From: Candidatus Veblenbacteria bacterium | GTDB lineage: Bacteria > Patescibacteriota > Patescibacteriia > Veblenbacterales > UBA10138 | NCBI GenBank assembly: GCA_037439965.1 | Contig: JBBIVB010000001.1 | Span: 31,895 to 95,894, forward strand | DNA: 64,000 bases | Direction of reading: 5' to 3' | Shown here: positions 14,039 to 43,410 of the stretch, in pieces | Layout of the letters: each line of letters starts with the position of its first letter | How positions within the stretch are numbered: the first letter of the stretch is position 1 | Notes under the pieces: generated by a model | Databases searched by the model: none | The model's input: the letters and a program-made list of their open reading frames with translations, nothing else | What the model was told of the DNA's origin: nothing | Program-made: the position numbers and the translations under genes

Positions 14039-14067
14039 CTTGACGTGAAGTCTAAATTAAATTATCA
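14039..14067 (+). promoter_or_regulatory. Sigma70-like promoter for tRNA-Gln (TTGACG-17-TATCAT)
   Basis: -35 TTGACG at 14039-14044, a 17-nt spacer, and -10 TATCAT at 14062-14067, placed 17 nt before the tRNA 5' end. Confidence 0.35.
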
Positions 14068-14084
14068 TAAGCACGTTATTTTGG

Positions 14085-14158
14085 TGGGGGATCGTCTAAA
14101 GGTAGGACACCACCCTTTGGAGGTGGGTATCGTGGTTCGAGTCCACGTCCCCCAGCCA
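14085..14158 (+). tRNA. tRNA-Gln (anticodon TTG), CCA encoded
   Basis: Acceptor UGGGGGA/UCCCCCA with a U1:A72 pair and G73 discriminator (known GlnRS identity elements). Anticodon stem CCACC/GGTGG with loop CTTTGGA, T-arm GGTTCGAGTCC, 3' GCCA. Confidence 0.8.
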
Positions 14159-14170
14159 ATTAGTAAAGTT

Positions 14171-14260
14171 TCGATTTTTCGCCTCGCCCGAATGTTTCGC
14201 ATTTTGCGGGATCAGAAATCAGCGTCCGGATTTTCGCGGAAAAAAGTTCGGATTTTGTTC
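14171..14260 (+). repeat. Array of four direct repeats of a 13-14 nt motif (TCG-N-ATTTT-SCGS) immediately 3' of tRNA-Gln
   Basis: tcgatttttcgcc (14171), tcgcattttgcgg (14197), ccggattttcgcgg (14226) and ttcggattttgttc (14247), spaced 22-29 bp apart. Confidence 0.5.
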
Positions 14261-14292
14261 AAGAGACACAGCCTTTTACTGTCTAGGGCTAT

Positions 14293-14509
14293 AATAAAAG
14301 ATAAGGAGGAAAAAATTTTAGTTTGCCGCAACAAGGGCAAGGATTATTATTTTTTCCATGGCGGTCATATAGAATTTGGTGAATCCTCAAAGCAAGCTTT
14401 ACAACGCGAACTTAGGGAGGAGTTGGGTTTAACTGCGGATAGCTTTACCTTTTTTATCAAACACAGGTTCGCGAAATTACTACTAAAAGTTTGGAAATCT
14501 GATATATAA
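14293..14509 (+). pseudogene. Nudix hydrolase remnant (Nudix box only)
   Basis: Translates KILVCRNKGKDYYFFHGGHIEFGESSKQALQRELREELGL, the GX5EX7REUXEEXGU Nudix box. No in-frame canonical start follows the AGGAGG upstream. Only about 27 aa follow the box. The annotated upstream ORF portion overlaps tRNA-Gln. Confidence 0.45.
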
Positions 14510-14748
14510 TAAATAAAAAATATGACAGAAAATAATGAAACTAAACCAAAATGTTGCCGATGTGACCAAATATGGTAAATTCTACCAAAAATATTTTCAT
14601 CTGCTTTAAAGCGCTGGTAATCTCAAGTGTTACATACTAACCATTATTTTATTAATTTATATTTTATTAATTTAGTTTATTACTATAATGTAGCTTATTT
14701 TAAATTAAGCAAGGTTGATTTTTGTATAGGGAGACGTAAAATAGGGGT

Positions 14749-15006
14749 ATGAACGAGACCGAAATTTCCAAAGAAATAGAATCCATCAAGGAGCGTAATA
14801 GAAAAGTGGAGTTAGATAAAGCTTGGGAATTATCATGGACTAGACGGTTGTTAATTCTTATTGGCACCTATATTCTGGCAGGAGTATGGCTTGAGATAAT
14901 TAAAGCTAATAATCCGTGGCAAAATGCCTTTGTACCAACATTTGGGTATTTATTATCAACCTTTACTATACCAATTGTTAAAAAGTGGTGGGTAAAAAAT
15001 AGATAG
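14749..15006 (+). CDS. Small hypothetical membrane protein (two predicted TM helices)
   Basis: 85 aa ORF with a charged N-terminus followed by two hydrophobic stretches. No family recognised. Confidence 0.4.
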   Translation: MNETEISKEIESIKERNRKVELDKAWELSWTRRLLILIGTYILAGVWLEIIKANNPWQNAFVPTFGYLLSTFTIPIVKKWWVKNR

Positions 15007-15237
15007 AATTATTTTTACTAAAAGCGGATAGAGGAACCCGCCAAAGGCGAATATTTCGGGGCGCAACGTGCCAAGCAGTGCATATATTTTATGTACTAAT
15101 TTTAACTTGACTTTTATTTATAATGATATAAAGTTATGATAGCTGAAATAAACAAAAAATCGTAAATTTGGCTAAAAACCTAGTTTTTTGTACTTTAATA
15201 ATTCATTAAAACCTTAACAAACTCCTTGGAGGATATA

Positions 15238-16704
15238 ATGAAAAATATATTCTTTGTAATTGTTTTGCTGTTTTTATTAAACTCGCTGGTCCTAGCCCAA
15301 GATCCGGCTGTTAATTACATTCAGGCCTTTCCGGAAAAAAGTATGGTAAAAACAGGACAGGAATTTGATGTACTGGTTCGTATTAATACCGGTAAGCTAT
15401 CTGTATATTCCGCCAGCTTTATCCTGGATTATGGCGATACTTATAATCTGGATGTCGTCAGTGTTTCAGGGGGCGATTTCCTGGGCAGTGATACATTATT
15501 TGCAGCTATTATCAAAGAAGCAAACAGTGATGTTCATATTTCTATCTCTCAAAAAGGTGAGGCTTCAGGTAATGTTGGCATCGGCACTTTGGCTATAGTA
15601 AGATTCCGCGCCAATAACGCCGCTAATATGGATATACGAACAGTTAATCTTTATTGCTTTGAGTTAGACATACGTGATCCCAATACTAAAGTTCTTAATA
15701 TTAGTAATACTTCTAGCCAACTGACTATTGCCGAGACTTTTGTCTGGCCAGGTGATGCTGACAACAACGGTATGGTTAACGAAGCAGATATTCTGCAAAT
15801 TGGTTTGCATTTTAACCAAACCGGTAATGCACGACCTAATGCTAGTTTTGATTGGAAAGCTCAACCAATGTCGTTTTGGAATGATACTACAGCGATGTAT
15901 GTTGACGCTACAGGGGACGGCAGAATCAAAATAAATGATATGCCAGCAATAGGATTTAATTACGGATTAACACACTTTAGTATAATGCCTATAACTTCCC
16001 CTTTGATACTACTAGACAAAATCGCGGCGGATAACAAGCTTTATGCTATTGCTAATCGTGTTGGTAATGAGGTTACCGTTTCAGTAATTGCTAAGGCGGC
16101 GCAAGATTTATTCGGCATCTCCTTTAAGATATTTTATAATCCTGCTGAGCTTTCCTTTATTGACGCTTATAATGGCGAATATATGCCCGGCGGTATCTTT
16201 TTTAAACATGTGGACACTAATCAAGGTTTACTAGCTTCTGCCGTAACTTTGACCAGAGGTGAAGATGGGGTAACAGATACTAAAAGCGTAATGATAGCGC
16301 GATTTAATATGCTAGACAATGATCTGAACTTACATTTCCAGGATGTTGTAGCGTATAACACTGCGGGTAATCGTATAGAATTTGAAGTTACTGATTTATC
16401 CGAAGTATTGGGGGTAAAAGATGAGATAGCGCCGACTGAATATTCATTGGCACAAAATTATCCCAATCCGTTTAATCCCACTACAACAATCAGGTATACA
16501 TTACCACGGGCTTCAACAGTAACGTTGATCATCTATAATGTTCTTGGTCAGAAAGTAATTTCTTTGGTAAATAGCCACCAAAATCCTGGAACTTACACAG
16601 TTCCGGTTAATGCTTCAGAACTATCTGATGGTATATATTTCTATACTTTGAGTGCCGGAGCCGGAACATTCACACAAACAAAAACAATGATGTTGGTTAA
16701 GTAA
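15238..16704 (+). CDS. Secreted cohesin/dockerin-like protein with a type IX secretion system C-terminal sorting domain (Por_Secre_tail-type CTD)
   Basis: GGAGG RBS 6 nt upstream of the ATG at 15238. Signal peptide MKNIFFVIVLLFLLNSLVLAQDP. Dockerin-like DADNNGMVNEADIL and DATGDGRIKINDM repeats. C-terminus LAQNYPNPFNPTTTIRYTLP...LIIYNVLGQKV...SDGIYFYTL matches the T9SS CTD consensus. Codon usage is visibly richer in CTG/CCG/GGC/GCC than in flanking genes. Confidence 0.7.
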   Translation: MKNIFFVIVLLFLLNSLVLAQDPAVNYIQAFPEKSMVKTGQEFDVLVRINTGKLSVYSASFILDYGDTYNLDVVSVSGGDFLGSDTLFAAIIKEANSDVHISISQKGEASGNVGIGTLAIVRFRANNAANMDIRTVNLYCFELDIRDPNTKVLNISNTSSQLTIAETFVWPGDADNNGMVNEADILQIGLHFNQTGNARPNASFDWKAQPMSFWNDTTAMYVDATGDGRIKINDMPAIGFNYGLTHFSIMPITSPLILLDKIAADNKLYAIANRVGNEVTVSVIAKAAQDLFGISFKIFYNPAELSFIDAYNGEYMPGGIFFKHVDTNQGLLASAVTLTRGEDGVTDTKSVMIARFNMLDNDLNLHFQDVVAYNTAGNRIEFEVTDLSEVLGVKDEIAPTEYSLAQNYPNPFNPTTTIRYTLPRASTVTLIIYNVLGQKVISLVNSHQNPGTYTVPVNASELSDGIYFYTLSAGAGTFTQTKTMMLVK

Positions 16705-16728
16705 CAAGTGCTTAACATAAATTTCAGG

Positions 16729-16771
16729 CACCTTAATACAATTCTAATACAATTGTATTAGGGTGTTTTTG
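16729..16771 (+). terminator. Intrinsic terminator (15-bp stem, 7-nt loop, TTTTTG) after the T9SS-CTD gene
   Basis: CACCTTAATACAATT-ctaatac-AATTGTATTAGGGTG followed by TTTTTG. Confidence 0.55.
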
Positions 16772-16839
16772 TAAACTTTAAGTAGTTTCCTTCGTTTAAT
16801 TAATTGACTTAAATTACAAAAAACTATATAATTATCTCT

Positions 16840-17790
16840 ATGCTAAAATTTAATAAAACAATTATTATAGTTATCGTGTTAATAGTTGGTATCAGTTTAG
16901 CTGATTATTTTATTTTTAACAGCAAAATCGCTGAATGGGAAAAAAAATTAAACCAAAGTATTAAAGAAAACCAAACTCTGGCTAATCAAATAGCTTCATT
17001 AACCGAAGCTTATAATAAACTACTAGCTACCTCTACGCAAACTACTAACACTAATAACACTAATAAAGTTAATAAAGAAAAAACACAGGAGCAGCTTTTA
17101 ACCGAAGCTGTTAGTAAAGTGGCACCGGCAGTAGTTTCTATTGTTATTACCAAAGATGTACCACAACTTGAAGTAGTATATATTAATCCTTTTGGTGATG
17201 ACCCATTTTTTAAAGATTTTAATATCCGTGTGCCGCAATATAGACAAAAAGGCACTGCTGAGCAAAAAGTAGGAGCTGGCACTGGTTTTATTGTTAAATC
17301 TTCTGGCTATATTATTACCAATCGCCATGTGGTTAATGATCAAAATGCGCACTATACTGTACTGTTAACTGACGGCAGCCAAAAATCAGCTCAAGTTATA
17401 TATCGTGATAATGATCTTGATTTAGCTATTTTAAAAATTGAGGGCAATAATTATTCTACTGTGACTTTTGGCAATTCCGACACCTTAAAACTTGGTCAGT
17501 CAGTTTTTGCTATAGGCAACGCATTGGGAGAATATAACAACTCGGTTTCGGTAGGTATTATTTCTGGTTTAAATCGTGACATTACTGCTTTTGGTGGCAG
17601 TAAATCAGAAAAATTACAAGGAGTTATTCAAACTGATGCTGCTATAAACCCTGGAAATTCTGGCGGACCATTAGTTAATTTAAACAGTGAAGTGATTGGT
17701 ATTAATGTGGCTATGGCTTCAGGAGAAAACATTGGTTTTGCTATTCCGATTAATGCTGTTAAAGCCATTATTAACTCTCAAATAAAATAA
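16840..17790 (+). CDS. Trypsin-like serine protease, S1C (HtrA/DegP-like) catalytic domain without PDZ, membrane anchored
   Basis: N-terminal TM helix, catalytic triad contexts ITNRHVV, DLDLAILKI and GNSGGPL, 316 aa. Confidence 0.75.
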   Translation: MLKFNKTIIIVIVLIVGISLADYFIFNSKIAEWEKKLNQSIKENQTLANQIASLTEAYNKLLATSTQTTNTNNTNKVNKEKTQEQLLTEAVSKVAPAVVSIVITKDVPQLEVVYINPFGDDPFFKDFNIRVPQYRQKGTAEQKVGAGTGFIVKSSGYIITNRHVVNDQNAHYTVLLTDGSQKSAQVIYRDNDLDLAILKIEGNNYSTVTFGNSDTLKLGQSVFAIGNALGEYNNSVSVGIISGLNRDITAFGGSKSEKLQGVIQTDAAINPGNSGGPLVNLNSEVIGINVAMASGENIGFAIPINAVKAIINSQIK

Positions 17791-18136
17791 CCATCTAAAG
17801 CACCTTGTATAAAAACTCCGCTGGAGATTATTACCCAGGGAGTGAATATTTGATTATAATTTTTCATTAATTTAATAAACCAGCACAAAACAATTATTAT
17901 CAGATAAAACACATACCAAAAGCAAGCACAAAAATTCTTAGCAATCAAGTCGTGTAATAATACTGGCTGAATAAATAGTATTTCAAATAATAAATTACCA
18001 AGTCAAATTAAAAGGTAAGCTGCCAAAGCCAAATCAACAATTCATTAATTTTTATTATTTTTCCTTATTCATTGTTTGTTTTATAATTAATTTTGTTTAG
18101 CTATCTTTAGTAATTAATATTTATCTAGTCAAAAAA

Positions 18137-18296
18137 ATGGCCTATAAGATTTTTAAATTAATATTAGCTATTGTGTTATGTGAACTAGCGGTGGTTGTTG
18201 GTTCATTTTTTTACTAACCTTAATATTGCAAGTTGGTATGCTGAATTAATTAAACCAAGTTTTAATCCGCCTAATTGGTATTTGACATTATCTTAA
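18137..18296 (+). pseudogene. TspO/MBR (tryptophan-rich sensory protein) N-terminal remnant, frameshifted and truncated
   Basis: Frame a gives MAYKIFKLILAIVLCELAVVVGSFFY-stop. The next frame gives NLNIASWYAELIKPSFNPPNWYLTLS-stop. The WY..L.KPSFNPPNW motif is the conserved TspO N-terminal signature and the remaining ~100 aa are absent. Confidence 0.5.
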
Positions 18297-18355
18297 TCTT
18301 ACTTGGATAAATTTTATTGCAGTGCTTAATTTTGTTATTTGGTAAATAAATTAAT

Positions 18356-18628: not shown

Positions 18629-20123
18629 AATGGTATTTCTTAGTAAAAAAATAATTTACCGTTTATGGGAAATGCTACCTGGGTTTTTAACTTGGGCAAC
18701 TCTCTTAGGGTGTGTGGTTATTTCTATAGTTCGCCCGATGTGGGCTATTTATTTTATTATTATTTTTGATTTGTATTGGCTATGGCGGGTGATATACTTA
18801 GCAATTTATATTTTAATCTCCTGGCATAAATACCGCAGGGATGTAAAAATTAACTGGTTTTTGGAAGCAAAAAAACTGCCGCGCTTTAATGAAATCTATC
18901 ATATAGTTTTCTTACCTACCTATAAAGAACCAATAGAAGTAATTAGATTATCTTTAAAATCATTAGCTCATAATAACTATCCTTTAACCAGAATGATAGT
19001 TGTCTTAGGTGGAGAAGCAAGAGATAAGGAAAAATTTCAAGTTACTGCCGAGACATTAAAGCAAGAATTTGCTGGAACTTTTTATAAATTTTTAGTAACC
19101 CTACACCCCGACGATATAGTGGGGGAGTTAGCTGGTAAGGGTTCTAATATCCATTGGATGGGATTACGTGCCAAAGAATTAATAGACCAATTACAAATTC
19201 CTTATTCTAATATTATTGTCTCCACTTTTGATGTAGATACCTGTGTATCTCATCACTACTTCTCCTATTTAACCTATAAATATCTAACTCATCCACATCC
19301 AGAACGTTCAAGTTTTCAACCGGTAGCTATTTATAATAATAATATTTGGGAATCATACTCTTTGAATAGAATTATTGCTTATTCCACCACCTTCTGGTTA
19401 TTTTCTGATATGGCCCGCTTAGACCGACTTTGTACTTTTTCCTCGCATTCTATGTCTTGGCGGACTTTAGTTGAGGTGGGTTTTTGGCAAAATGATGTGG
19501 TGTCGGAGGATTCGCGTATTTTCTGGCAATGCTTTACTCATTATCATGGCAACTACTCAGTAACGCCACTTTTTTTACCAGTGTCTATGGATACTGTTTA
19601 TACAGGCAAATTATGGAGCACGATGGTAAATCAATATAAACAACAGCGACGCTGGGCTTATGGTGCAGAAAATATACCCTATGTAGCAATACACTTTTGT
19701 TATGATAAACAAATACCGCTGGGTAAAAAATTAAAGCAGTTTTTTAATTTAGTGGAGGGTTATTATTCCTGGGCTACCGCGCCAATTATTATTTTCCTGC
19801 TCGGACGCTTACCTTTATATTTCTTAAGTGGAGAAGAAGAACAAAGTTTAATAGCCCATAATGCCCCAATTATTCTTAACTGGTTGATGATTTTAGCTAT
19901 GATTGGTTTGCTTTTAAGTGCTATTTTGTCAGTGATTTTACTACCACCCAAGCCTCAACATCACCCAAATTTAAAATATGTGGTAATGATTTTGCAGTGG
20001 CTATTATTCCCTATAGCTATGTTATTTTTTAGTGCCTTGCCGGCTATTGATGCCCAAACTAGATTACTTTTAGGAAAATATATGGGCTTTTGGGTAACGG
20101 CTAAACAGCGGAGTAAAACTTAA
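18576..20123 (+). CDS. Processive family-2 glycosyltransferase (cellulose/chitin/hyaluronan synthase-like), integral membrane
   Basis: N- and C-terminal TM bundles flank a cytoplasmic GT-A domain. QQRRW (QxxRW) processivity motif at NQYKQQRRWAYGAENI. An alternative in-frame start ATG at 18630 follows the stop of the upstream small ORF. Confidence 0.65.
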   Translation: MDGVKFMKAAGKIILANKMVFLSKKIIYRLWEMLPGFLTWATLLGCVVISIVRPMWAIYFIIIFDLYWLWRVIYLAIYILISWHKYRRDVKINWFLEAKKLPRFNEIYHIVFLPTYKEPIEVIRLSLKSLAHNNYPLTRMIVVLGGEARDKEKFQVTAETLKQEFAGTFYKFLVTLHPDDIVGELAGKGSNIHWMGLRAKELIDQLQIPYSNIIVSTFDVDTCVSHHYFSYLTYKYLTHPHPERSSFQPVAIYNNNIWESYSLNRIIAYSTTFWLFSDMARLDRLCTFSSHSMSWRTLVEVGFWQNDVVSEDSRIFWQCFTHYHGNYSVTPLFLPVSMDTVYTGKLWSTMVNQYKQQRRWAYGAENIPYVAIHFCYDKQIPLGKKLKQFFNLVEGYYSWATAPIIIFLLGRLPLYFLSGEEEQSLIAHNAPIILNWLMILAMIGLLLSAILSVILLPPKPQHHPNLKYVVMILQWLLFPIAMLFFSALPAIDAQTRLLLGKYMGFWVTAKQRSKT

Positions 20124-20471
20124 TTTAATCTTGACCTAAAAACCACCAAATTAGTTAAACAGATTTTTTTAAGATATTATCGCTTCTTCTTCATTAACTA
20201 GGCGCGGCTGAAAATAATCTTCAATAATTACAGGTATCAATCGTAGTTCGGCGATGCTGATTTCTTTGCTTTTAACCAAAGTTACTCTTTCAACATTAAA
20301 CCTTCGCGTGTCTCCTGGCTATACATGTGGTAGCTAACTGCTTTTTTAATACCACTGGCGTCAAGACTATATCAACCGACTGTTCAAGCCACAAAAACAG
20401 CAGCAAGAAAAACGGCATTACTGAATAAATTATGAGTAAAATAAAAATCAACCAAAGATAACGTAATATAA

Positions 20472-21404
20472 TTAACCAAGCTTACTACTAATAAAATTTT
20501 TGTGGCCTAAAATAAAATTCTGAGCTGATAACGCTTTACCGCCAGCTAATTGTAATTCTTTAATTTCCAATGCCATATCTTGAGCATCGACTAATAATTT
20601 ACCATTTTGATAACGAACCAATCCGGTTGAGACGGCTGGTTCCTGACTTAATGAAATTTTTGATAATTTAACACGCTTTTTTTGCCAAAAAGTATAAATA
20701 CCAGGCCATGAAACATACGCCCGCCATTGGTTATAAATTGTTTGTGCGTTTTGCTGCCAATTAATCTGCCCGTCTTCGCGTTTAATAATTTTACAAAAAG
20801 TAGCTTGGGTGTGGTCTTGGGGTAATAATTTAATTTCTTGGTTTAAATACTTAGGTAGATTTTCAACGAGCAATCTGGCAGCCGCTTTGGCTGATTTAAT
20901 TTCTAATTCATTTATTGTTTCGTCCAACGTTAGATTAATTTTAGTTTGGGCAATAATCGGACCATGATCAACTTCATTATCTAACTTGATTAAAGTTACA
21001 CCGCTTAGCTTCTCGCCAGCTAATAATACTGCTTGCAGAGGAGATGGGCCTCGCCATTTTGGTAAAAGCGAAGGATGAACATTAATAATGCCTTGGACAA
21101 ATAAAGAAATAATAGGAGAAGGAATAATTTTACCAAAAGACGCCAAAATCGCTAATTTACAGTTAGTTTGGGTTAATTTTTCTAAAATCGTTTGATTTTT
21201 AAAACTAGTAACTTCTAAATATGCCAAATTATGCTGCTGACAAAAAAGAATAAGTGAGCTTGGTTGGAGAATTTGTTTACGGCCAGAGGGTTTGGTTTGA
21301 GGGACAACGACTAACTTGGGCTGGAAACTTTGACAAACCAATTCTTCTAAAACTACTTGGGAGAAACTACTGGAACCAAAAAAAACATAATCAAAATTTG
21401 CCAT
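20472..21404 (-). CDS. fmt: Methionyl-tRNA formyltransferase
   Basis: 310 aa, N-terminal formyltransferase domain with HPSLLPKWRGPSPLQ and SGVTLIKLDNEVDHGPII motifs. Overlaps def in the usual def-fmt arrangement. Confidence 0.85.
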   Translation of the reverse strand: MANFDYVFFGSSSFSQVVLEELVCQSFQPKLVVVPQTKPSGRKQILQPSSLILFCQQHNLAYLEVTSFKNQTILEKLTQTNCKLAILASFGKIIPSPIISLFVQGIINVHPSLLPKWRGPSPLQAVLLAGEKLSGVTLIKLDNEVDHGPIIAQTKINLTLDETINELEIKSAKAAARLLVENLPKYLNQEIKLLPQDHTQATFCKIIKREDGQINWQQNAQTIYNQWRAYVSWPGIYTFWQKKRVKLSKISLSQEPAVSTGLVRYQNGKLLVDAQDMALEIKELQLAGGKALSAQNFILGHKNFISSKLG

Positions 21405-21912
21405 ATTGACTCAATAAGTCTTGACCGCTGGTTATCTTACTTACTTTATCGGTAAATAAAATACCATTTAAGTGGTCTACTTCATGCTGATAAACTCTAG
21501 CTAGTAAACCAGTTAATCGTTCTGTAATAGTTTTACCAAATTCATCTTGATAATGTGCCGTTACTGAATTAGGTCTTTTGACGATGCCAAATACTCCTGG
21601 TACTGATAAACACCCTTCTTCTATTTTTACCTTACGCCAAGATTTGTTTAATAATTGAGGATTAAAAAATACCCTCGGGCCTTGACTAGTATTAATAACT
21701 ATTAATTTAATACTAAAACCAACCTGCGGCGCGGCTAAACCAATGCCGTCGTGAATCATCATCGCCTTACACATCTCTGGCACTAATTTAACCATCTCTT
21801 GAGTTAAAGGAAAAGTTATCATCTCGGTTTTTTGGCGTAATATCTTATTAGGAACTGTTATAATTTTTAACATATCTAATTTAAGATAAAATAAACCTTG
21901 GCTCTCTGTCAA
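21391..21912 (-). CDS. def: Peptide deformylase
   Basis: GIGLAAPQVG, EGCLSVPG and HEVDHLNG metal-binding motifs. Confidence 0.85.
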   Translation of the reverse strand: MTESQGLFYLKLDMLKIITVPNKILRQKTEMITFPLTQEMVKLVPEMCKAMMIHDGIGLAAPQVGFSIKLIVINTSQGPRVFFNPQLLNKSWRKVKIEEGCLSVPGVFGIVKRPNSVTAHYQDEFGKTITERLTGLLARVYQHEVDHLNGILFTDKVSKITSGQDLLSQYGKF

Positions 21913-23737
21913 TAATTAACTGACGAGGTAGGAAAGGCCACAAACTTTCTATTTTAAATTTTTTAGGACACTTTAATAACAAATGATAAATATACTGTCC
22001 GTGTTCTATTATTCTGCTATCCGCATAAATAGGGGAGAGGACCAACTCACTGGATAAAACTTTAATTAACTGCTGGCGAAGTTTGATGATTGCCTGACGA
22101 GCTTTCAGCTGATTTTTATTTTTAACCGACAAACGCACTAATTGACTAAACGGCGGCCAATAATATAACTGCCGATAAGACAAAAGATAACGATAAAACT
22201 GATTATTGTTAGTTAAATATTTAAGCACGGGCGATTCAGGAAAATTAGTTTCTAATAACACACTAACACTATCAGACTCGCTTAATATTTTACGCAAAAT
22301 AGCCCCAGCGGTTTCTTCAGCTCTAAATTCTGGTGATAATAAATTTTGGTCAAAGGAAGTAATTACTAATAATGCAAAATCAGCTACTTTAGCATAATCC
22401 CAAATCAAAGAGGTACTAATTACTATCTGAGCAGATTTAATCTCTTTGACGGTAATTTTTGTTTTTGTATTATAATCCACTCGACAAATATGAACGTCGG
22501 GATACCGCTGTCGACAAGCATGCTCTATTTCTTGACTACCAACACCTAAAAACTTCCATTGCACATTTTGACACTTAGGGCAACGAGCTGGTAATTCACT
22601 AATAGTTTGACAATTGTGACAAGCTAGCTTTCTTTTATCATGATGCCAAGATAAGGGTTTTAAACATTTTTGACACCGGGGTATATATTTACAATCACGA
22701 CAAAAAACAGCAGTAGATGAACCTAAACGGTTATGCCAAATTAACACTTTTTGTTTACTCTCTAAACTAGCAGTAATTTGTTCCCATGAACTTAAAGCTA
22801 ATTGTTTGCTAACTGTAGGATTAGCCGAGATATCAACTATGGTAAGCCGCCCACTAAACAATAAACCTAGGTTTTGCAATTGCCATTCTTTATTCATTAA
22901 ATAATAATCTTCGGCTCTAGGCGCTGGCGTAACCTGTGCTAGGGAACAACCATAAATTTGTTTAAGCCAACGCGCTACTTCTATACTATTGTAACGAGGA
23001 TTTTGGTCATACTGTTTATAATTTTCATCATCACCATAATCTATAATTACACCACCTAAATTTAACCAGGGTAAAAACAATGCTGATCTGGTGCCGATAA
23101 TTATTTTAGCCTCGCCGGTAAATACTTTTTGCCAAGTTATTCTTTTAGCTGAAGTTTTTAATTCAGAATGCCAGCCAACTATTTGATTAGCTTGGAATAA
23201 TTTATTCTGCCAATCTAAAATTAATTTAATATTAGGCACTAATAATAAAACTTGCTGTTGCCGCCCTATTACTTTATTTATTGCTGCTTGGATAAATTTT
23301 TCTGCCTCTAGTCTTTGCCCATAAGTAATCAACAAAGGTTTTGACGTAGGTAGAGCTTTTTTTATTTTTTGTTGAGGCCTTATTATCACGTGCTCTTTGG
23401 TGGTTACTGGAAATGGTATAAATAATTGACTAGCAGTACTCATAGATACGGCGTAATAGTGAGCCAGTCTAGCTAATAATTTAAGTTGTCCAGAACTTAA
23501 AAACTTAGGCCATTTAATTGTTTGAATATCTTTTAGAGGATAGTTAGGCTTACTGGATTCAAAACCTAAAATTAAACCTAAGGTTTTTTGCTGGCGAAAA
23601 TTAACTTGCACTAAATCTCCAGCTGCTACTTGTCTTATTAGTTTAATTGGAACTTGATAAGAAAAAAAATCTTTATCACGGGGTAGACGGCCAAATAAAG
23701 CTACTCGAGCAACTTTTTTATAATGAGCAGTGTTCAT
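21881..23737 (-). CDS. priA: Primosomal protein N' (PriA) homolog with degenerate helicase ATPase motifs
   Basis: PriA-type Cys4-Cys4 zinc-binding region CRDCKYIPRCQKCLKPLSWHHDKRKLACHNCQ...CPKCQ, with overall PriA architecture. The Walker A position reads TYGQRLEAEKF (no GKT). The DEEH position reads DYGDD. Confidence 0.75.
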   Translation of the reverse strand: MNTAHYKKVARVALFGRLPRDKDFFSYQVPIKLIRQVAAGDLVQVNFRQQKTLGLILGFESSKPNYPLKDIQTIKWPKFLSSGQLKLLARLAHYYAVSMSTASQLFIPFPVTTKEHVIIRPQQKIKKALPTSKPLLITYGQRLEAEKFIQAAINKVIGRQQQVLLLVPNIKLILDWQNKLFQANQIVGWHSELKTSAKRITWQKVFTGEAKIIIGTRSALFLPWLNLGGVIIDYGDDENYKQYDQNPRYNSIEVARWLKQIYGCSLAQVTPAPRAEDYYLMNKEWQLQNLGLLFSGRLTIVDISANPTVSKQLALSSWEQITASLESKQKVLIWHNRLGSSTAVFCRDCKYIPRCQKCLKPLSWHHDKRKLACHNCQTISELPARCPKCQNVQWKFLGVGSQEIEHACRQRYPDVHICRVDYNTKTKITVKEIKSAQIVISTSLIWDYAKVADFALLVITSFDQNLLSPEFRAEETAGAILRKILSESDSVSVLLETNFPESPVLKYLTNNNQFYRYLLSYRQLYYWPPFSQLVRLSVKNKNQLKARQAIIKLRQQLIKVLSSELVLSPIYADSRIIEHGQYIYHLLLKCPKKFKIESLWPFLPRQLIIDREPRFILS

Positions 23738-23740
23738 AAT

Positions 23741-24505
23741 CTACCAGGTAACACTAGTGATTAATTGATGAATTAAACCGTCGTCTTCGTCAGCTAGAAT
23801 TAAAGTTTTAACTTGCGTGTCAAGTAAAATATACATCAAAGATAAGGGTAAAAGACAATTTTCTTGCACCGCTTGACGTAATTTATTATCTAACTCCAAT
23901 AAACGCGAATAATTCGCAGTTTTTAAAATTTTTCTTAAATTAGTAATATAAATTTTATAATCACCTTGTTCTTTTTGGGGAATGTGGGCGGGGATACCAG
24001 CAGCTAGAACTACTATCTTTTCAGGGCGCGAACTAAAAAAATCCTGCATAATTTTTCCTATATGCAATAAATCGTCCATCGGTAACAGGGGCGATAAATT
24101 TATCGGCGCTACTAAGCAATCAATTTGACTATAAAATAAAGGAATAGCAATATCGGTTGGTAATTCAGGGACGGTTCTTAAGGGTACGCTGATTTTCTTT
24201 TCTAAAAACTCTTTTAAAGAATGAATAAAGCCGGTTGCCCCTGAAAATTTTTTATGAGTTACTAAATCTCCTACGGTATGGAAATTTGCTAGATAATCAG
24301 ATTGTTGCCAAAACCACAACGGGATATTATCCCACGTATTGCTTTGGGTAATAATTACTACCACTTCAGGACGGTGTTTTCTTATAATCCTGGCTAATTT
24401 AGCCAAAGCATGGCTAGTAATAGTTAGCTTACTACGAAATTTAGATTTAATACCCGGCAGAAAATATGGTGTGTTGGTAATAAAACCAGCAGCTACGATT
24501 GGCAT
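23741..24505 (-). CDS. Hypothetical protein, possibly LigB/DODA-type (class III extradiol dioxygenase-like) fold with non-conserved catalytic histidines
   Basis: 254 aa. The N-terminal pattern MPIVAAGFITNTPYF...PEVVVIITQSNTWDN parallels the HGSP and SAHW strands of YgiD/LigB-type proteins, but His is replaced by Asn/Thr. This is a low-confidence recollection. Confidence 0.3.
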   Translation of the reverse strand: MPIVAAGFITNTPYFLPGIKSKFRSKLTITSHALAKLARIIRKHRPEVVVIITQSNTWDNIPLWFWQQSDYLANFHTVGDLVTHKKFSGATGFIHSLKEFLEKKISVPLRTVPELPTDIAIPLFYSQIDCLVAPINLSPLLPMDDLLHIGKIMQDFFSSRPEKIVVLAAGIPAHIPQKEQGDYKIYITNLRKILKTANYSRLLELDNKLRQAVQENCLLPLSLMYILLDTQVKTLILADEDDGLIHQLITSVTW

Positions 24506-24507
24506 AT

Positions 24508-25920
24508 TTAAAATGGTTCTCCTATAGCTTCTCCTAATTCATGTGCATTAATGGCTCCATCTGTAGTAACAATAATATTTTTACTCTCATAACCCAATTC
24601 TTGGAAAGCATCCTCGGTTAAAATTGGACGACGTTTACTATTAGAAATTACATAGACTGTGGGATTGGTCTGAGAACGAACTAGGTCACCATCTTTAAAC
24701 AATAGCGGATCACCAGTTGGAAATTTCTCTAACTCTTGAGTGGTCATCTTTTTAGTTACTTTGCGTGAACCAAAGTTAGCTTTAAGTATTTCTCGTGAAA
24801 AAATGGGGTGTTTAATATTATCCTGCACCCAATAAACACCACCTGATTTCTTATCTTGAATTAATTGACCTAAAGGATATATGGACTCTTCGGTAATTGG
24901 TTGACCTTCTTTATACGCCGCTAAATCTTCCCAAGAAACATTAATAATTTCTTCGGGATTAATACCTATTTGCTTTAAAGCTTTTTTAGAAGCAAAGCCG
25001 CGAATTATACCATTAGGCATTAGGATGTAAACTGTGCCACTCGGTGATTTTAAGAAAGAGTAAACCGTAAACTTAATAGGACTACCCTCAGGATATTTTT
25101 GTAATTCTCTCAAACTTACAGTTAATACACGATCAAAATTTGGATAGTAAGATAAATAAACAGCACGCGAACTAAACTTATGACGTTCACCATCTTTAAT
25201 TAACCAAACTTCACGTTTACCTTCTACATTTAATAAACTACCATCTGGATAGATACGAGAAAAATATTTATTCCAAAGATACCACAATAACTCATTACCT
25301 TCTAGATGTGGAGTATAAGTATAAAGAATAGCAGTAGCTTTATTAGCTGGAACAACAGTTTTGCCGTCTACCCGCTTGGCTATCCCTGGGCCAAAACCAA
25401 AAGGGGTTTTGCCGGTAGAGATTAATGCTGGTAAATATTTTTCTCTAATAATTTTAGCTGCCCAAATAACTTGATTAAAAAATCCTTTATATTTAAGCAA
25501 TAAAGGATCATCCATACTGCAAGTATCACATAAAGCGTACCCTGTCGCCCAATCAAATCTTTTATCAGTTGTATTATTACTTTCAATTAAACCTTGTTCT
25601 TTTTGTAGCAAAACTAAAAGATATTTAGGATTGATTTGATAAGTTTGAGAAGCGTAATAGATTATTTTTAAGGCTGACCAATTAGTAATGGGGTCGGTAT
25701 AAGAAAGTAGAGGGCTATTTTTATCTTGCAAAAATTTTTCTATTTGTTCCAAAGTCAAAGATTGATAATCTAAAATATCCTGATCCAATAAAATATAGGT
25801 CGGATCAAATTTAGATTGAGCTATGGCTGATATAGGCCAACTTAGTATGGAAAGTAACAACCAAAGGGCATTAATTTTTGTTACAATTTTTGTTTGTATC
25901 ATATTCAAATTATACAACAA
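24508..25920 (-). CDS. Secreted or membrane-anchored protein with four C-terminal ~47-aa tandem repeats; N-terminal region possibly lysozyme-like
   Basis: N-terminal hydrophobic helix. Repeats begin EVWLIKDGERHKF, GTVYILMPNGIIRGF, GGVYWVQDNIKHPIF and PTVYVISNSKRRPIL. The LLVLLQKEQGL segment is reminiscent of muramidase catalytic Glu context (weak). Confidence 0.4.
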   Translation of the reverse strand: MLYNLNMIQTKIVTKINALWLLLSILSWPISAIAQSKFDPTYILLDQDILDYQSLTLEQIEKFLQDKNSPLLSYTDPITNWSALKIIYYASQTYQINPKYLLVLLQKEQGLIESNNTTDKRFDWATGYALCDTCSMDDPLLLKYKGFFNQVIWAAKIIREKYLPALISTGKTPFGFGPGIAKRVDGKTVVPANKATAILYTYTPHLEGNELLWYLWNKYFSRIYPDGSLLNVEGKREVWLIKDGERHKFSSRAVYLSYYPNFDRVLTVSLRELQKYPEGSPIKFTVYSFLKSPSGTVYILMPNGIIRGFASKKALKQIGINPEEIINVSWEDLAAYKEGQPITEESIYPLGQLIQDKKSGGVYWVQDNIKHPIFSREILKANFGSRKVTKKMTTQELEKFPTGDPLLFKDGDLVRSQTNPTVYVISNSKRRPILTEDAFQELGYESKNIIVTTDGAINAHELGEAIGEPF

Positions 25921-25991
25921 ATAAATAATTTACACAATAAAACTCTGGATTAGAGAAAAGGTTAATAAAATGGTATAATAAATTAACTACT

Positions 25992-26513
25992 ATGAGATTA
26001 TTTTTTGGCTGCTTTTTACCTCCGCCAATAATAGCTGATTTAACCAAATTATATCAGGAACTAGGAACTATTAAGGCTAAATTGGTGGAGCCACATAATC
26101 TGCATCTTAATTTAGTATTTATAGGAGAAGTTAAAGAGAGCGATTTAGCAAAGGTGATAAAAATAGGGGAGTTAGCAGCCAGTCAAAACCATATTTTAAA
26201 AATTAAATTAGCAGGCTATGATTTAATACCAAATAAGCAAAAACCACGGGTACTGGCTATTAAAACTAAGGCAGACCAAGAGTTTAATTTACTGCAAAAA
26301 TGTCTTAGCCAAAACCTAGCCATTTTAGGCTATATTACTAATATCAAACCAGCCCATTTAACCCTAGCTAGATTAAAATCTGCTATTATAAATCCTTTAC
26401 CTGACTTTAATCCATTTTTTGCTAATATTAGCAAATTTTCTTTAATTAAAAGCCAACTTACATTCTCTGGCCCTATTTATACCCCATTACAATCATTTAA
26501 ATTGGCTTCCTGA
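25992..26513 (+). CDS. 2H phosphoesterase family protein (LigT/ThpR-like 2'-5' RNA ligase)
   Basis: 173 aa with two H-x-[T/N]-x motifs (HLNLVF and AHLTLARL) spaced as in LigT. Confidence 0.45.
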   Translation: MRLFFGCFLPPPIIADLTKLYQELGTIKAKLVEPHNLHLNLVFIGEVKESDLAKVIKIGELAASQNHILKIKLAGYDLIPNKQKPRVLAIKTKADQEFNLLQKCLSQNLAILGYITNIKPAHLTLARLKSAIINPLPDFNPFFANISKFSLIKSQLTFSGPIYTPLQSFKLAS

Positions 26514-26593
26514 GTATTGTTCTGGTTTGTGTTATATTTATTTTTTGTTTATTAGGTACCTAAATTAGACTTTTTAAAACTTGGAATCTACTT

Positions 26594-28024
26594 ATGAGCA
26601 TTAGAGTAAGATTTGCACCATCACCCACAGGCGAACTCCATATTGGTGGAGCGAGAACTGCTTTATATAATTATCTGGTAGCTAAAAAAGCGGGTGGACA
26701 ATTTATTTTACGTTTAGAAGATACCGACCAAGAAAGATACATTAAAGGTAGCGAACAAAGACTTCTAGACGATTTATTGTGGCTTGGATTATCTTGGGAT
26801 GAAGGACCTGATATTGGTGGATATCATGGACCATATATTCAATCACAACGCTTAAAAATATACCAAGAACATGCTCAAAAATTACTAGCCAGCGGCGAAG
26901 CTTATTATTGTTTTTGTTCTGAAGACAGATTGCAAACTTTACGGAAGGAACAAACGGCCTCGGGACAACCTACTAAATATGATCGCCATTGTCTTAGTTT
27001 AAATAAAGAACAAATTAAAAATAAAATTAAAGAGGCTGGTAAATATGTTATACGACTAAAGATTCCCGATGGTTTCACTCAATTTACTGATTCCATACAT
27101 GGTCAAATAAAAGTTGATAATCAAACTATTGATGATCAAATATTAATAAAATCTGATGGTTATCCAACTTATCATTTAGCCTGTGTAGTAGACGACCATT
27201 TAATGGAAATAACTAATGTGATTAGGGGGGAAGAGTGGCTACCTTCTACACCCAAACATGTTTTACTATATCAAGCTTTTGGTTGGACCCCGCCCACTTG
27301 GACACATTTACCCAATGTTTTAAATACACAACGTGTTAAATTATCTAAACGTAAAGATGGAGAGACTGTTTGGTTATCAACCTATAGGCGACAAGGTTAT
27401 TTACCAGCAGCTTTAATTAACTTTTTGGCGCTACTTGGTTGGCATCCTCATGATAATCGTGAATTATTTACCCTGGCAGAGTTAGTAAAAGAATTTGATT
27501 TAGCCAGAGTACAAAAAGCTGGAGCAATTTTTGATTTGGATAAATTGTATTGGTTTAACGCTCAATATATTAAAAAGATGGAAATAACAACTTTGGATAA
27601 ATTATTAAAAGATTTTTATCCCCAAACAAAATTTAATACCTTACCCTTAACTCAAATTTTACAAACACGTTTGACTACTTTAGCCGAAGTTAAAACTATT
27701 GCTGAATTTTTTTTTGTAGATCAAGTAAGTTTAACTAAAAATAAATTAATACCAAAAGATAGCTTCCTAGAAGATACAATTAAAGCTCTGGGATTGAGTA
27801 AAGAAAAGCTTAGTAAATTAACTCACTGGGAAATATCGGCTTTGCAAAACTGTTTAACTAATCTAATAGCAGAATATAATTTTACTCGTCGGCAAGTTTT
27901 GTGGCCCATTAGAGTAGCTTTAACTGGTCAAGAGAAATCACCTGATGTTTTTGATGTTTTGTGGGCCTTGGGTAAAGAAAGAAGTTTGGTTAGGATTGAG
28001 CGTGCTTTGAGTTTATTAACTTAA
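26594..28024 (+). CDS. gltX: Glutamyl-tRNA synthetase
   Basis: IRVRFAPSPTGELHIGGARTALYNYL (HIGH motif) and KLSKRK (KMSKS-type), 476 aa. Confidence 0.9.
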   Translation: MSIRVRFAPSPTGELHIGGARTALYNYLVAKKAGGQFILRLEDTDQERYIKGSEQRLLDDLLWLGLSWDEGPDIGGYHGPYIQSQRLKIYQEHAQKLLASGEAYYCFCSEDRLQTLRKEQTASGQPTKYDRHCLSLNKEQIKNKIKEAGKYVIRLKIPDGFTQFTDSIHGQIKVDNQTIDDQILIKSDGYPTYHLACVVDDHLMEITNVIRGEEWLPSTPKHVLLYQAFGWTPPTWTHLPNVLNTQRVKLSKRKDGETVWLSTYRRQGYLPAALINFLALLGWHPHDNRELFTLAELVKEFDLARVQKAGAIFDLDKLYWFNAQYIKKMEITTLDKLLKDFYPQTKFNTLPLTQILQTRLTTLAEVKTIAEFFFVDQVSLTKNKLIPKDSFLEDTIKALGLSKEKLSKLTHWEISALQNCLTNLIAEYNFTRRQVLWPIRVALTGQEKSPDVFDVLWALGKERSLVRIERALSLLT

Positions 28025-28028
28025 AATT

Positions 28029-29228
28029 ATGCACTCTGATTGGAAAATATTGCTTATAGTCTTAAGTCTCTCTTTTTTAATTGGAGGGTGGGGGATAGCC
28101 GCTACTCCAATAGAAGAACTGAACAATAAAATTCAGCAAGAAAAACAAAAACTAGAAGAAACGCAAAAGAAAATTGAGGAATATCAGCAACAGATTGCCG
28201 TCAAACAAGCTGAAGTTAATTCTCTAAAAAAACAGTTAAATGTCTTGGATGATAAAATCTCCCAAGCTGAACTTGATTTAAAAGCTAACGAGCTCAATCT
28301 TAATACTATTAGTTTAGAAATTCAAAGTATCACTTTAGAAATCAAAAATAAGGATGCTCAAATCAATGTGACTAAAGATAAAATAGCTGAAGTTTTACGT
28401 CAGTTATATTTAGCTGACCAAAAAAATTTATTAGAAATTCTCCTGCTCCATGAAAGATTAGGAGACTTTTTTGACCAGTTAAATTATTTGCAGGAATTAC
28501 AAAATACTTTGCAATCTAATGTAGATTATTTACAAAAATTAAAAGTTGAATTAGAAAATCAACAGCAGAATTTATCTAATAAAAAAATAAAATTATTGGA
28601 TATTAAAAAATCATTGGAGATTTCCCAATCTCTATTAACCGCTACTAAGGAGGAAAAAACTTATTTAATTCAACAAACCAAACAATCAGAAAATCGCTAT
28701 CAATTATTATTAGCTCAAGCTATCTCTGAACAAGAATCTGCTAATCTTGATATTCAACGAATGGAATCAGAATTAAGACAAAAAATAGCTAATGAAAAAG
28801 AATATACTCAATTATCCGATGCTAATTTTATTTGGCCCATTAATCCAGCTTTGGGTATCACCGCTTATTTTCATGATCCAGATTATCCTTTTAGAAAATA
28901 CTTTGAACATCCAGCTATAGATATCAGGGCTAAACAAGGTACACCAATTAAAGCTGCTGCTTCGGGTTACGTAGGAAGAGCTAAAGATGCAGGCTATGGT
29001 TATAGTTATATTATGTTAATTCATGGCAATAATTTTTCTACTGTTTACGGTCATGTTTCAAAAATAAATGTTTCCGAAGGAGATTTTGTAACCAAAGGAC
29101 AAATTATTGGTTTAAGTGGTGGGTTACCCGGCACTCCTGGCGCGGGCAGATTAACCACTGGAGCTCATTTACACTTTGAATTACGTTATAATGGTTTGCC
29201 TATTGACCCTTTGGAATATCTACCATAA
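28029..29228 (+). CDS. M23 family metallopeptidase with long N-terminal coiled coil (EnvC-like murein hydrolase/activator)
   Basis: Signal/TM, then about 230 aa of heptad-rich coiled coil, then a LytM domain with HPAIDIRAKQGTPI...GHVS...GAHLHFELRYNG. Confidence 0.75.
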   Translation: MHSDWKILLIVLSLSFLIGGWGIAATPIEELNNKIQQEKQKLEETQKKIEEYQQQIAVKQAEVNSLKKQLNVLDDKISQAELDLKANELNLNTISLEIQSITLEIKNKDAQINVTKDKIAEVLRQLYLADQKNLLEILLLHERLGDFFDQLNYLQELQNTLQSNVDYLQKLKVELENQQQNLSNKKIKLLDIKKSLEISQSLLTATKEEKTYLIQQTKQSENRYQLLLAQAISEQESANLDIQRMESELRQKIANEKEYTQLSDANFIWPINPALGITAYFHDPDYPFRKYFEHPAIDIRAKQGTPIKAAASGYVGRAKDAGYGYSYIMLIHGNNFSTVYGHVSKINVSEGDFVTKGQIIGLSGGLPGTPGAGRLTTGAHLHFELRYNGLPIDPLEYLP

Positions 29229-42357: not shown

Positions 42358-43410
42358 TTACCTTATCTCGGTTGATTCCCGCGGCGGCAATAATAAATCT
42401 TTGGTGTGTTCCAAATCTTCTAAAATTATCCCTGCACCCCTGACTACACAAGTTAAAGGATCATCAGTTACTTGCACTGGAATAAACAATTCCGCTGATA
42501 TCAACTTATCTAAGCCTTTTAGCAACGAACCGCCGCCCACCATAATAATTCCACGCTGGTATATATCGGCTGCTAATTCTGGAGGGGTTTGCTCAATAGT
42601 AGACCTAATATTTTCAATAATTAACTTAATAATCTTAAGTAAAGCTTCTCTGATTTCTGTTTCACTTACCATAACCTCTCGCGGTAAACCAGTAATTAAA
42701 TGACGTCCGCGGACATTTATATTTAAAGGTTTGCTTTGTGGTATAGCTGAACCAATTTTTATTTTAACTTCCTCAGCAGTCTTTTCACCAACCAATAAAT
42801 TAAAATTTTCTCGTAAATAATGAATGATGCTATCGGTTAACTCATCACCAGCGACGCGTAAAGATTGCGAAGTAACCACTCCGCCTAAGGAAATTACCGC
42901 AATTTCTGTAGTACCACCGCCAATATCAACCAACATATTACCACTAGGGTCCCTAACAGGTAATCTAGCACCCAAAGCTGCAGCCATTGGCTCCTCTACC
43001 AATAAAACTTCCCTGGCGCCAGCTGATAACGCCGCGTCTTCTACTGCTTTACGTTCTACTTCAGTTACATCTAATGGAATACCAATAACTACTCTTGGCC
43101 TAGCTGCTAATCTAAAACCTTCTTTGTGCACGCGGTCAATAAAATATTTAAGCATTTTTTCTGTTACTTCAAAATCAGAAATAACACCATCTACTAGGGG
43201 TCTGGTAGCAATAATATGCGGCGGGGTTTTACCTAACATTTTTCTAGCTTCTTCTCCTACAGCTAAAATTTGATCCGAACGAGTATTCACCGCCACGATT
43301 GATGGCTCATTAATAATAATTCCCCTATCCTTCACATAAACCAGCGTATTAGCCGTGCCTAAATCTATAGCCATATCACGACTAAAGGCGGCAAATAACT
43401 TCTTTAGCAT
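42358..43410 (-). CDS. mreB: Rod shape-determining actin homolog MreB
   Basis: IDLGTANTLVYVKDRGIIINEPSIVAV phosphate-1 motif, 350 aa, full actin-fold motifs. Confidence 0.9.
   Translation of the reverse strand: MLKKLFAAFSRDMAIDLGTANTLVYVKDRGIIINEPSIVAVNTRSDQILAVGEEARKMLGKTPPHIIATRPLVDGVISDFEVTEKMLKYFIDRVHKEGFRLAARPRVVIGIPLDVTEVERKAVEDAALSAGAREVLLVEEPMAAALGARLPVRDPSGNMLVDIGGGTTEIAVISLGGVVTSQSLRVAGDELTDSIIHYLRENFNLLVGEKTAEEVKIKIGSAIPQSKPLNINVRGRHLITGLPREVMVSETEIREALLKIIKLIIENIRSTIEQTPPELAADIYQRGIIMVGGGSLLKGLDKLISAELFIPVQVTDDPLTCVVRGAGIILEDLEHTKDLLLPPRESTEIR

Follow-up and report, generated by a model that had tools for sequence, protein, structure and literature searches.

Why should a bacterium of a lineage regarded as having no outer membrane encode a protein that ends in the sorting domain used by type IX secretion systems (T9SS)? 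The question is raised by a gene at 15238..16704 (+) in a 64-kb stretch of a Candidatus Veblenbacteria genome (64,000 nucleotides of contig JBBIVB010000001.1, assembly GCA_037439965.1; hereafter the window), whose 488-aa product closes with such a C-terminal domain (CTD). T9SS CTDs are usually treated as markers of secretion across the outer membrane, and the Patescibacteria, to which the host belongs, are described as lacking that membrane (PMC12102498), in line with the initial reading of the letters by themselves (the sequence-only reading), which had seen no sign of one. We find a canonical CTD in a gene that is a genuine resident of a Patescibacterial genome, with each of its modules under purifying selection. 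The reading we favour as a whole, at a probability of about 0.6, is that the gene encodes a resident, Sec-exported, Ca-dependent scaffold or adhesin with a repurposed CTD, which would have been acquired anciently.

Module organization of the protein

The protein consists, in order, of a signal peptide, a cohesin, a dockerin-like module, a second cohesin and a type A T9SS CTD; we refer to the last four modules together as the cassette. The corresponding features of the window are:

15238..16704 (+), coding sequence of the 488-aa cargo-less cassette protein, identical to database protein P0001 (open reading frame list, domain scores, GGAGG)
15238..15297 (+), Sec-type signal peptide MKNIFFVIVLLFLLNSLVLA, followed by QDP (inspection of the sequence and orthologue alignment; modelled as a helix over 2-16)
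15307..15735 (+), cohesin module 1, about residues 24-166 (Pfam Cohesin; pLDDT about 88; Foldseek)
15736..15987 (+), dockerin-like module, about residues 167-250, with the Ca-loop motifs DADNNGMVNEAD and DATGDGRIKIND (profile, PDB sequence matches, conservation)
16024..16392 (+), cohesin module 2, paralogous to module 1, spanning about residues 263-385 (profile cross-match, PDB profile matches; pLDDT about 75)
16447..16701 (+), T9SS type A CTD, residues 404-488, with QNYPNPFNP, Gly437, GIYFY and the C-terminal KTMMLVK (profiles, seven-strand model, Foldseek)

The sequence-only reading had taken the C-terminal region for a T9SS sorting domain, and profile searches bear this out, with 43.1 bits against TIGR04183 (cut-off 23) and 41.1 bits against Por_Secre_tail, PF18962 (cut-off 27), both above the curated cut-offs. 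The type B model CHU_C gives 20.3 bits, under its cut-off of 27, and a hidden Markov model (HMM) made from 108 CTDs of other proteins scores 124 bits on this CTD. An AlphaFold2 model of the CTD by itself, built from 40 CTDs, has a pLDDT of 90 and seven predicted strands, which agrees with the compact 3+4 Ig-like beta-sandwich, strands beta1-beta7, of T9SS CTDs (PMC11285876). The solved T9SS CTDs of RemA (8gl6_D), mirolase (8qb1) and PorZ (5m11) are among its top Foldseek matches (TM 0.53-0.65), at E-values that are weak (1e-3 to 5e-2) and do not separate them from generic Ig-like domains, which score alike. The CTD further resembles the FlgD Ig-like domain (PF13860), matching solved FlgD chains at a profile E of 2e-5 and the Pfam model weakly; however, that Pfam match is sub-threshold and weaker than the one to Por_Secre_tail, no flagellar context is seen, and QNYPNPFNP and the C-terminal K-x-x-x-x-K are signatures of T9SS CTDs, unlike FlgD. 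Gly437, located in the beta3-beta4 loop between model strands 29-36 and 42-51, is invariant in the 40 CTDs and all 11 family members, and the C-terminal K...K residues are nearly so; both the glycine of this loop and the C-terminal motif are needed for T9SS secretion in P. gingivalis (PMC11285876).

The CTD occupies the extreme C-terminus of a protein that begins with a signal peptide, the latter being judged by eye from the sequence and the alignment rather than by a predictor. This signal peptide is without Cys, so the protein is not a lipoprotein, and neither a lipobox nor a membrane anchor is present in it. An A-Q-(D/E)-P junction is kept in all orthologues, and the predicted first mature residue is Gln (15298-15306, Q21-D-P), as it also is in the orthologues of loci L081, L082, L083 and L086. 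Under the 'Q-rule' of Bacteroidetes, the N-terminal Gln of secreted proteins is cyclised by glutaminyl cyclase (PMC5837995). The protein thus parallels the type A T9SS cargo of Bacteroidota and the wider FCB group, such as RgpB, RemA and mirolase, in its Sec signal peptide, in its terminal CTD of ~85 residues scoring above curated thresholds, in the predicted seven-strand Ig-like sandwich with the beta3-beta4 Gly and the C-terminal motif, and in its first mature Gln. It differs from them in being found in a Patescibacterial host regarded as devoid of an outer membrane, with no T9SS gene in 64 kb, and in having no cargo domain.

As to the remaining modules, the Pfam model Cohesin (PF00963) matches over two stretches with 36.8 bits (cut-off 24.1). 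The two cohesin modules match each other's HMMs and are therefore paralogues, and module 2 additionally matches scaffoldin cohesins in a PDB profile search. In the full-length AlphaFold2 model (mean pLDDT 66.6) cohesin 1 is predicted confidently, and cohesin 2 and the CTD fairly. The best Foldseek matches of this model are cohesins, with the ScaA cohesin dyad at E = 5e-15; single cohesins are matched at TM 0.6-0.81, normalised to the target. Cohesin-like segments had been recognised from the sequence but both given as upstream; in fact, one lies upstream and the other downstream of the dockerin-like module. This middle module has dockerins as its best PDB sequence matches (E = 4e-4), and the homologous modules of relatives pass the Dockerin_1 threshold at 24-57 bits. 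Its two loops, at residues 173-184 and 223-234, fit the EF-hand-like pattern D-x-[DT]-x-[ND]-G-x(5)-D; the strings originally quoted for them are found at residues 173-186 and 223-234.

These modules invite comparison with clostridial cellulosomes, with which the protein shares the cohesin fold of the ScaA dyad and the paired EF-hand-like Ca loops of the middle module. The fold is also that of the non-cellulosomal cohesin of Archaeoglobus fulgidus, with a Foldseek TM of 0.81 normalised to the target; such non-cellulosomal cohesin and dockerin modules were surveyed by Peer et al. 2009, as cited in PMC8542988. In contrast to cellulosomes, however, cohesins and dockerin-like module here share one polypeptide, the ~50 residues inserted between the Ca loops far exceed the usual length, neither a dockerin-bearing enzyme nor a scaffoldin lies nearby, and carbohydrate-active enzymes are not linked to it. 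No other cohesin or dockerin open reading frame (ORF) occurs in the window or the neighbourhoods of the orthologues, and no carbohydrate-active enzyme is attached to the protein itself. A cellulosome-like system was rejected, as neither the window nor the orthologue neighbourhoods hold a multi-cohesin scaffoldin with dockerin enzymes.

Host, locus and history of the gene

The contig belongs to the Patescibacteria, also known as the candidate phyla radiation (CPR). The nearest relatives of the LepA encoded in the window come from Kerfeld-, Magasanik-, Uhr- and Kuenenbacteria-type metagenome-assembled genomes (MAGs), all of them Patescibacteria, and it is 85% identical to the LepA of the closest relative, locus L001. 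We compared ORFs with a 1.1-Mb pool of Patescibacterial sequence and with an equal-sized pool of other loci, for which control loci of the other pool behave oppositely; the ORFs of the window sum to 10,980 bits against the Patescibacteria and 1,749 bits against the other pool. Beyond MurJ, DivIC, FtsEX, FtsQ, Ddl, Alr, PBP2, MreBCD and an M23 peptidase, the window holds aminoacyl-tRNA synthetases, a DUF4012 protein and two glycosyltransferase-rich clusters. In keeping with what had been noted from the sequence, a Pfam scan of ~46 ORFs of the window found no gene of the T9SS, such as those for PorK/L/M/N, SprA/Sov, PorV or PorU, and none of outer-membrane biogenesis.

The gene sits in a segment that varies between the window and L001, with the following landmarks:

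14085-14158, tRNA-Gln, bounding the variable segment on the left
14159..18355 (no strand), variable segment relative to L001, from the 3' end of tRNA-Gln to orf90
14261-14509 (+), truncated NUDIX hydrolase remnant (positions 8-66 of the 134 of the Pfam profile), directly after tRNA-Gln
14749-15006, orf85, within the variable segment
15180..15210 (no strand), left arm of an imperfect inverted repeat of ~31 nt around the cassette gene and its terminator
16726..16768 (about; +), intrinsic-terminator-like hairpin followed by TTTTTG, directly 3' of the stop codon (inverted repeat; fold -25 kcal/mol)
16795..16826 (no strand), right arm of the same repeat, overlapping a promoter-like site of the HtrA-like gene
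16840-17790, HtrA-like protease, the next gene after the cassette gene, within the variable segment
18356-18628, orf90, bounding the variable segment on the right

On both sides of this segment the gene order is collinear with that of L001, namely MurJ-LepA-DivIC-PpiC-FtsE-FtsX-tRNA-Gln on the left and orf90-GT2-Fmt-orf173-PriA on the right. The segment itself measures 4.2 kb in the window versus about 620 bp in L001, where the cassette gene is absent. In L086, which holds the closest orthologue, a homologue of orf90 likewise lies directly downstream of the cassette gene, and the divergence of orf90 between the two (52%) equals that of the cassette protein (53-55%). Since both flanks are collinear with L001 and the linkage to orf90 is common to L086, the contig is not chimeric, contrary to one option of the sequence-only reading, and the gene is a genuine resident of a CPR genome. 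Composition, moreover, runs smoothly over both junctions of the segment, and the gene lies within a 96.7-kb contig with Patescibacterial genes on either side.

Its close family is small, comprising four other proteins (P0002-P0005) among 5.8 billion, which are 42-55% identical to the target and occur on five contigs (L081, L082, L083, L086 and L089, the proteins of L083 and L089 being identical). A homologue search with a CTD-less alignment returned the five close members and a few matches to the dockerin region only; it missed some proteins of its own query alignment and is uninformative on distant relatives. All other cassette bodies are at most 34% identical to the target, and a neighbour-joining tree built from such bodies unites the Patescibacterial copies in a single clade. 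The ORFs of the five orthologue contigs score 664, 1832, 583, 177 and 1600 bits against the Patescibacterial pool and, correspondingly, 81, 58, 170, 0 and 76 bits against the other; L081 has an XerC-S15-NYN block in common with a Patescibacterial MAG and L082 a CtpA-L9-PyrG block in common with Kuenenbacteria loci. The distribution is patchy: 80 LepA-anchored Patescibacterial loci are all without the cassette gene.

Comparison of the orthologues shows that all four modules, the CTD included, are under purifying selection. Identity between lineages is highest in the dockerin-like module (62%), followed by the CTD (50%) and the cohesins (42% and 35%), with the linkers at 12-21%. Between L081 and L083, the overall dN/dS is 0.106; it is lowest in the dockerin-like module (0.043), lies at about 0.10-0.12 in the cohesins and reaches 0.158 in the CTD. 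With its 50% identity, a dN/dS of 0.158 and both the Gly and the C-terminal motif intact, the CTD is thus not a relic. The CTD of the window is 55-64% identical to CTDs of unrelated proteins and 49-52% identical to those of its own orthologues, and is being held near the general CTD consensus.

Farther afield, the cassette recurs as a generic, tightly coupled unit on hundreds of large, diverse surface proteins, T9SS-type cargo, of uncultured, CTD-rich, diderm-type bacteria. A scan of metagenomes with the CTD-less body recovered 461 relatives, and in nearly all of the 80 relative loci that were fetched, proteins of 500-3,668 aa terminate in cohesin-dockerin-cohesin-CTD. In an exhaustive profile search, 674 protein clusters matched with E <= 1e-30, a number that rose to 5,882 when the limit was E <= 1e-10; a CTD is carried by 148 of the 152 proteins examined, with the body ending a median of 106 residues before the C-terminus. 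N-terminal to the cassette are cargo domains such as LamG/CBM4_9, Sortilin-BNR, BACON, VWA, CARDB/MG2, FG-GAP and CHAP, while the Patescibacterial form is the cassette alone, with no cargo. The relative loci often encode 2-5 CTD ORFs, some on contigs of >2 Mb, and their contexts include TolC-like, OMP beta-barrel and CsgG genes. These large environmental proteins (such as P0011 and those of L090-L168) share with ours four homologous modules in equal order and spacing, a body identity of 27-34% and an invariant VWPGD...DA-GDG signature of the dockerin-like module; they differ in their varied cargo and in coming from contigs with several CTD proteins or outer-membrane genes, and the Patescibacterial form makes up a clade apart from them. 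We found no description of cohesin-dockerin-cohesin-CTD as one unit in the searchable literature, where cellulosome-like, CTD-bearing cohesin/dockerin proteins are inferred to form surface assemblies in Cloacimonadota (PMC8542988). The ultimate origin of the cassette is likely to lie in CTD-rich, diderm-type (FCB-like) bacteria, by an old transfer.

The composition of the gene has to be set beside this history. The proposed codon contrast with neighbouring genes holds for CTG (21% vs 3% in the background), TTA (23% vs 60%) and CCG (28% vs 15%), but hardly for GGC (27% vs 24%) and GCC (22% vs 17%). In their own loci the orthologues are mildly atypical, with codon z of -1.3, -1.2 and -0.2. The GC content of the gene, 38.7%, is slightly above the window mean of 35%, and across lineages it follows that of the host (39% in a 35% genome, 41% in a 34% one and 52% in a 49% one), the orthologues showing the same slight excess in their own genomes. 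Because the clade is Patescibacterial, GC follows the host and the linkage to orf90 and its divergence are common to L086, the comparison favours a gene of long standing at this locus that was lost from L001.

Several observations concern the neighbourhoods of the orthologues and the labels of the records. In two lineages the cassette gene adjoins clusters resembling those of type IV pili or type II secretion systems, with T2SSE, T2SSF, prepilin-like and PilM genes; such adjacency is absent from the window and L081. The clusters are located as follows:

L083 4346-9731, pilus-like cluster beside the cassette gene
L089 3540-8604, pilus-like cluster beside the cassette gene
L082 12322-21446, pilus-like cluster beside the cassette gene

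In L083 and L089 the cassette gene directly follows one for a VWA protein. A 'Rosetta stone' link to P0011, in which a VWA domain is fused to the cassette, was rejected, as the VWA domains lack specific similarity. A second, unrelated CTD protein, P0066 (575 aa, with an Ig-like HYDIN/ASH-type domain and 40 bits to Por_Secre_tail), is encoded at L084 10001-11728 on the Patescibacterial 876-kb contig CAYVOI010000001.1; its body has no homologue among the 5.8 billion proteins, and its gene adjoins one for a 2,175-aa SpvB/TcdB/RHS toxin-like protein (L084 2054-8581). Many MAG records that are clearly Patescibacteria-like (L001, L003, L005, L010 and others) are titled 'uncultured Gammaproteobacteria bacterium', apparently as a placeholder, and the cassette protein P0010 is labelled as coming from a Lokiarchaeota MAG, probably through mis-binning.

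Proposed function and competing explanations

What might such a protein do in this cell? On our favoured reading, the cassette would have passed in the distant past from an FCB-type bacterium with a T9SS to an ancestor of the Patescibacterial clade; thereafter it would have been inherited, lost in places (as in L001) and possibly exchanged within the phylum. The protein would leave the cell via the Sec pathway, and outside it the Ca-dependent dockerin-like module and the two cohesins may bind its own copies or other cohesin/dockerin proteins, the whole serving as a scaffold or adhesin outside the cell. In this cell the CTD would be unable to act as a T9SS export signal, as there should be no outer membrane to cross. 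Likewise, export by SprA/Sov, cleavage by PorU and attachment to anionic lipopolysaccharide (A-LPS) are not expected, given a host regarded as devoid of that membrane and no T9SS gene in 64 kb. Its retention implies an activity other than export, and it may have been kept as a working binding or structural module in a repurposed role. The sequence-only reading had left the choice between a non-functional and a repurposed CTD; its conservation, dN/dS and motifs speak against the former, and the data favour the latter.

At this locus purifying selection maintains a canonical CTD although the phylum is regarded as having no outer membrane, so that annotations such as 'T9SS sorting domain-containing protein' are not readable as evidence for a T9SS. 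The stripped-down form of the cassette is also a compact candidate for surface assembly or host attachment in ultra-small bacteria. Nothing relevant on T9SS-type CTDs in the CPR/Patescibacteria, including Saccharibacteria and Parcubacteria, was found in the searchable literature.

Several points tell against this reading. We infer the function from domain identities alone. The dockerin-like module is the most conserved part of the family, with both Ca loops in place, but in this protein it scores only 15.5 bits against Dockerin_1 (PF00404; cut-off 22.9), so that of the cohesin/dockerin description originally proposed the cohesins stand above their threshold and the dockerin falls below its own. 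It is also modelled poorly in the full-length AlphaFold2 structure (pLDDT below 40). The starts of its loops, which flank a conserved Trp-rich insert, are separated by 50 residues; this spacing is non-canonical for type I dockerins (PF00404), whose definition calls for two loop-helix repeats in tandem, both binding Ca and about 22 residues long. The consensus-like CTD would be odd if its role were merely structural. The host's lack of a T9SS and of an outer membrane is taken from knowledge of the phylum, the span inspected being 64 kb, and the direction of the ancient transfer from abundance and a midpoint-rooted neighbour-joining tree. Finally, synonymous codon use is more atypical in this gene than in any other of the 54 window genes (z = -2.9); together with its absence from L001 and the unique inverted repeat, this would allow the gene to have been replaced laterally in fairly recent times, with another Patescibacterium as the probable source.

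Such a replacement is one of four competing accounts, and has a small but real chance of being right: the family would be old in the phylum, and this copy would have replaced an earlier one or re-entered the locus from a somewhat GC-richer Patescibacterium as a small cassette bounded by the 31-nt repeat. It would explain why this copy has a codon z of -2.9 when the orthologues range from -0.2 to -1.3 at home, a repeat that brackets exactly the gene and its terminator and occurs nowhere else in 64 kb, and the patchy distribution (none of 80 Patescibacterial LepA loci). However, the repeat is absent from every orthologous and all fetched loci, no transposase lies nearby, viral contigs yielded no relatives, and the shared linkage to orf90 in L086 fits vertical descent. 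A recent transfer from a Bacteroidota or other FCB donor, with the CTD as a non-functional leftover, was the origin put forward by the sequence-only reading, and is by now improbable and largely refuted. The atypical codons, the absence from L001 with a break in homology exactly at the 3' end of tRNA-Gln, the unique bracketing repeat and the adjacent truncated NUDIX gene could all be cited for it. Yet the nearest homologues, at 42-55% identity, form a clade confined to Patescibacteria, the best body from elsewhere being at most 34% identical. The linkage to orf90 is shared with L086 at a divergence equal to that of the protein, GC is only 3-4 points above the host's with a like excess in orthologues that are themselves mildly codon-atypical, the CTD has a dN/dS of 0.16 with intact motifs, and there is neither an integrase nor an att repeat. 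The joining of a fragment from a T9SS organism into a Patescibacterial contig by assembly or binning is barely credible. It can call on the codon use alone and on the Lokiarchaeota label of P0010, which indicates that mis-binning does occur in the family; against it are the position inside a 96.7-kb contig, where the gene is flanked left and right by collinear Patescibacterial genes, the smooth composition at the junctions, five other Patescibacteria-like contigs with orthologues, and the unrelated CTD protein on an 876-kb Patescibacterial contig.

The fourth account concerns function. Patescibacteria are widely held to be obligate epibionts (PMC12102498), and the secreted, cargo-less cassette might plug into the surface of an attached T9SS-bearing, FCB-type host and so tether the epibiont, either by cohesin-dockerin pairing with the host's own cassette proteins or through a CTD that is bound by surface-exposed PorV or processed by PorU. 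This mimicry would fit a protein that is only the module found at the anchored end of others' surface proteins, a CTD near the consensus whose T9SS-recognition motifs are under purifying selection in a lineage expected to have no T9SS of its own, and the proximity to type IV pilus-like clusters in two lineages. Nevertheless, no host is known for the lineage, co-occurrence and binding lend no support, CTDs can be incompatible even between two species of Bacteroidota (PMC11285876), the engagement of PorV or PorU by an external CTD is purely hypothetical, and the pilus-gene link is weak and absent from the window. We therefore regard host-surface mimicry as unlikely, and the more specific idea of the cargo-less cassette and its T9SS tail as a molecular plug on a host cohesin-dockerin network or exposed PorV/PorU machinery as, if anything, slightly more doubtful still; were it true, it would be the first instance of a T9SS sorting signal that serves, from the outside, as a ligand for attachment to a host.

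Further features of the gene and the window

Mechanical ORF listing gives a single long ORF at the locus, 15226..16704 (+), opening with TTG. The real start is almost certainly the ATG at 15238, because GGAGG lies 7-11 nt upstream of it and the identical P0001 has 488 aa. The stop codon ends at 16704, and the end coordinate of 16771 first given for the gene is probably explained by inclusion of the terminator hairpin. A promoter scan found promoter-like sites to be no more numerous than in shuffled sequence.

The inverted repeat scores 40, compared with 18.7 +/- 3.2 in shuffles, and its 18-nt core occurs only at the two sites in 64 kb (0.21 expected by chance). No inverted repeats surround the orthologues, the motif is absent from all fetched loci and no transposase was found near the gene; the repeat could be a scar resembling terminal inverted repeats, a shared operator or chance. 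The 3' end of tRNA-Gln is the exact point at which homology to L001 ceases; a classical tRNA island was considered and rejected, as there is no repeat of that 3' end downstream and no integrase. Carriage by phages was rejected too, a scan of viral contigs with the cassette body having yielded no relatives. The mechanical ORF containing the NUDIX remnant (14045-14509) overlaps the tRNA gene.

Elsewhere in the window, a 342-aa protein with Sortilin/BNR/PSII_BNR repeats and no CTD is encoded at 49776-50804 (-); in other genomes, CTD proteins often have domains of the Sortilin/BNR type as cargo (several database matches, L092). Cumulative GC skew peaks at ~19000-29000, where genes switch from mostly + to mostly - and transcription converges, a pattern suggestive of a replication terminus that lies a few kb away from the cassette gene. 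At 45210-47340 (-), short ORF fragments with motifs of phosphoenolpyruvate (PEP)-utilising enzymes (PpsA/PPDK-like) lie within ~2.8 kb without a long ORF, and this run looks like a fragmented pseudogene. Two MreB paralogues (42358-43410 (-) and 52938-53945 (-)), along with MreC, an M50 protease and a transpeptidase of the PBP2 type, make up a rich cell-shape set for a reduced genome.

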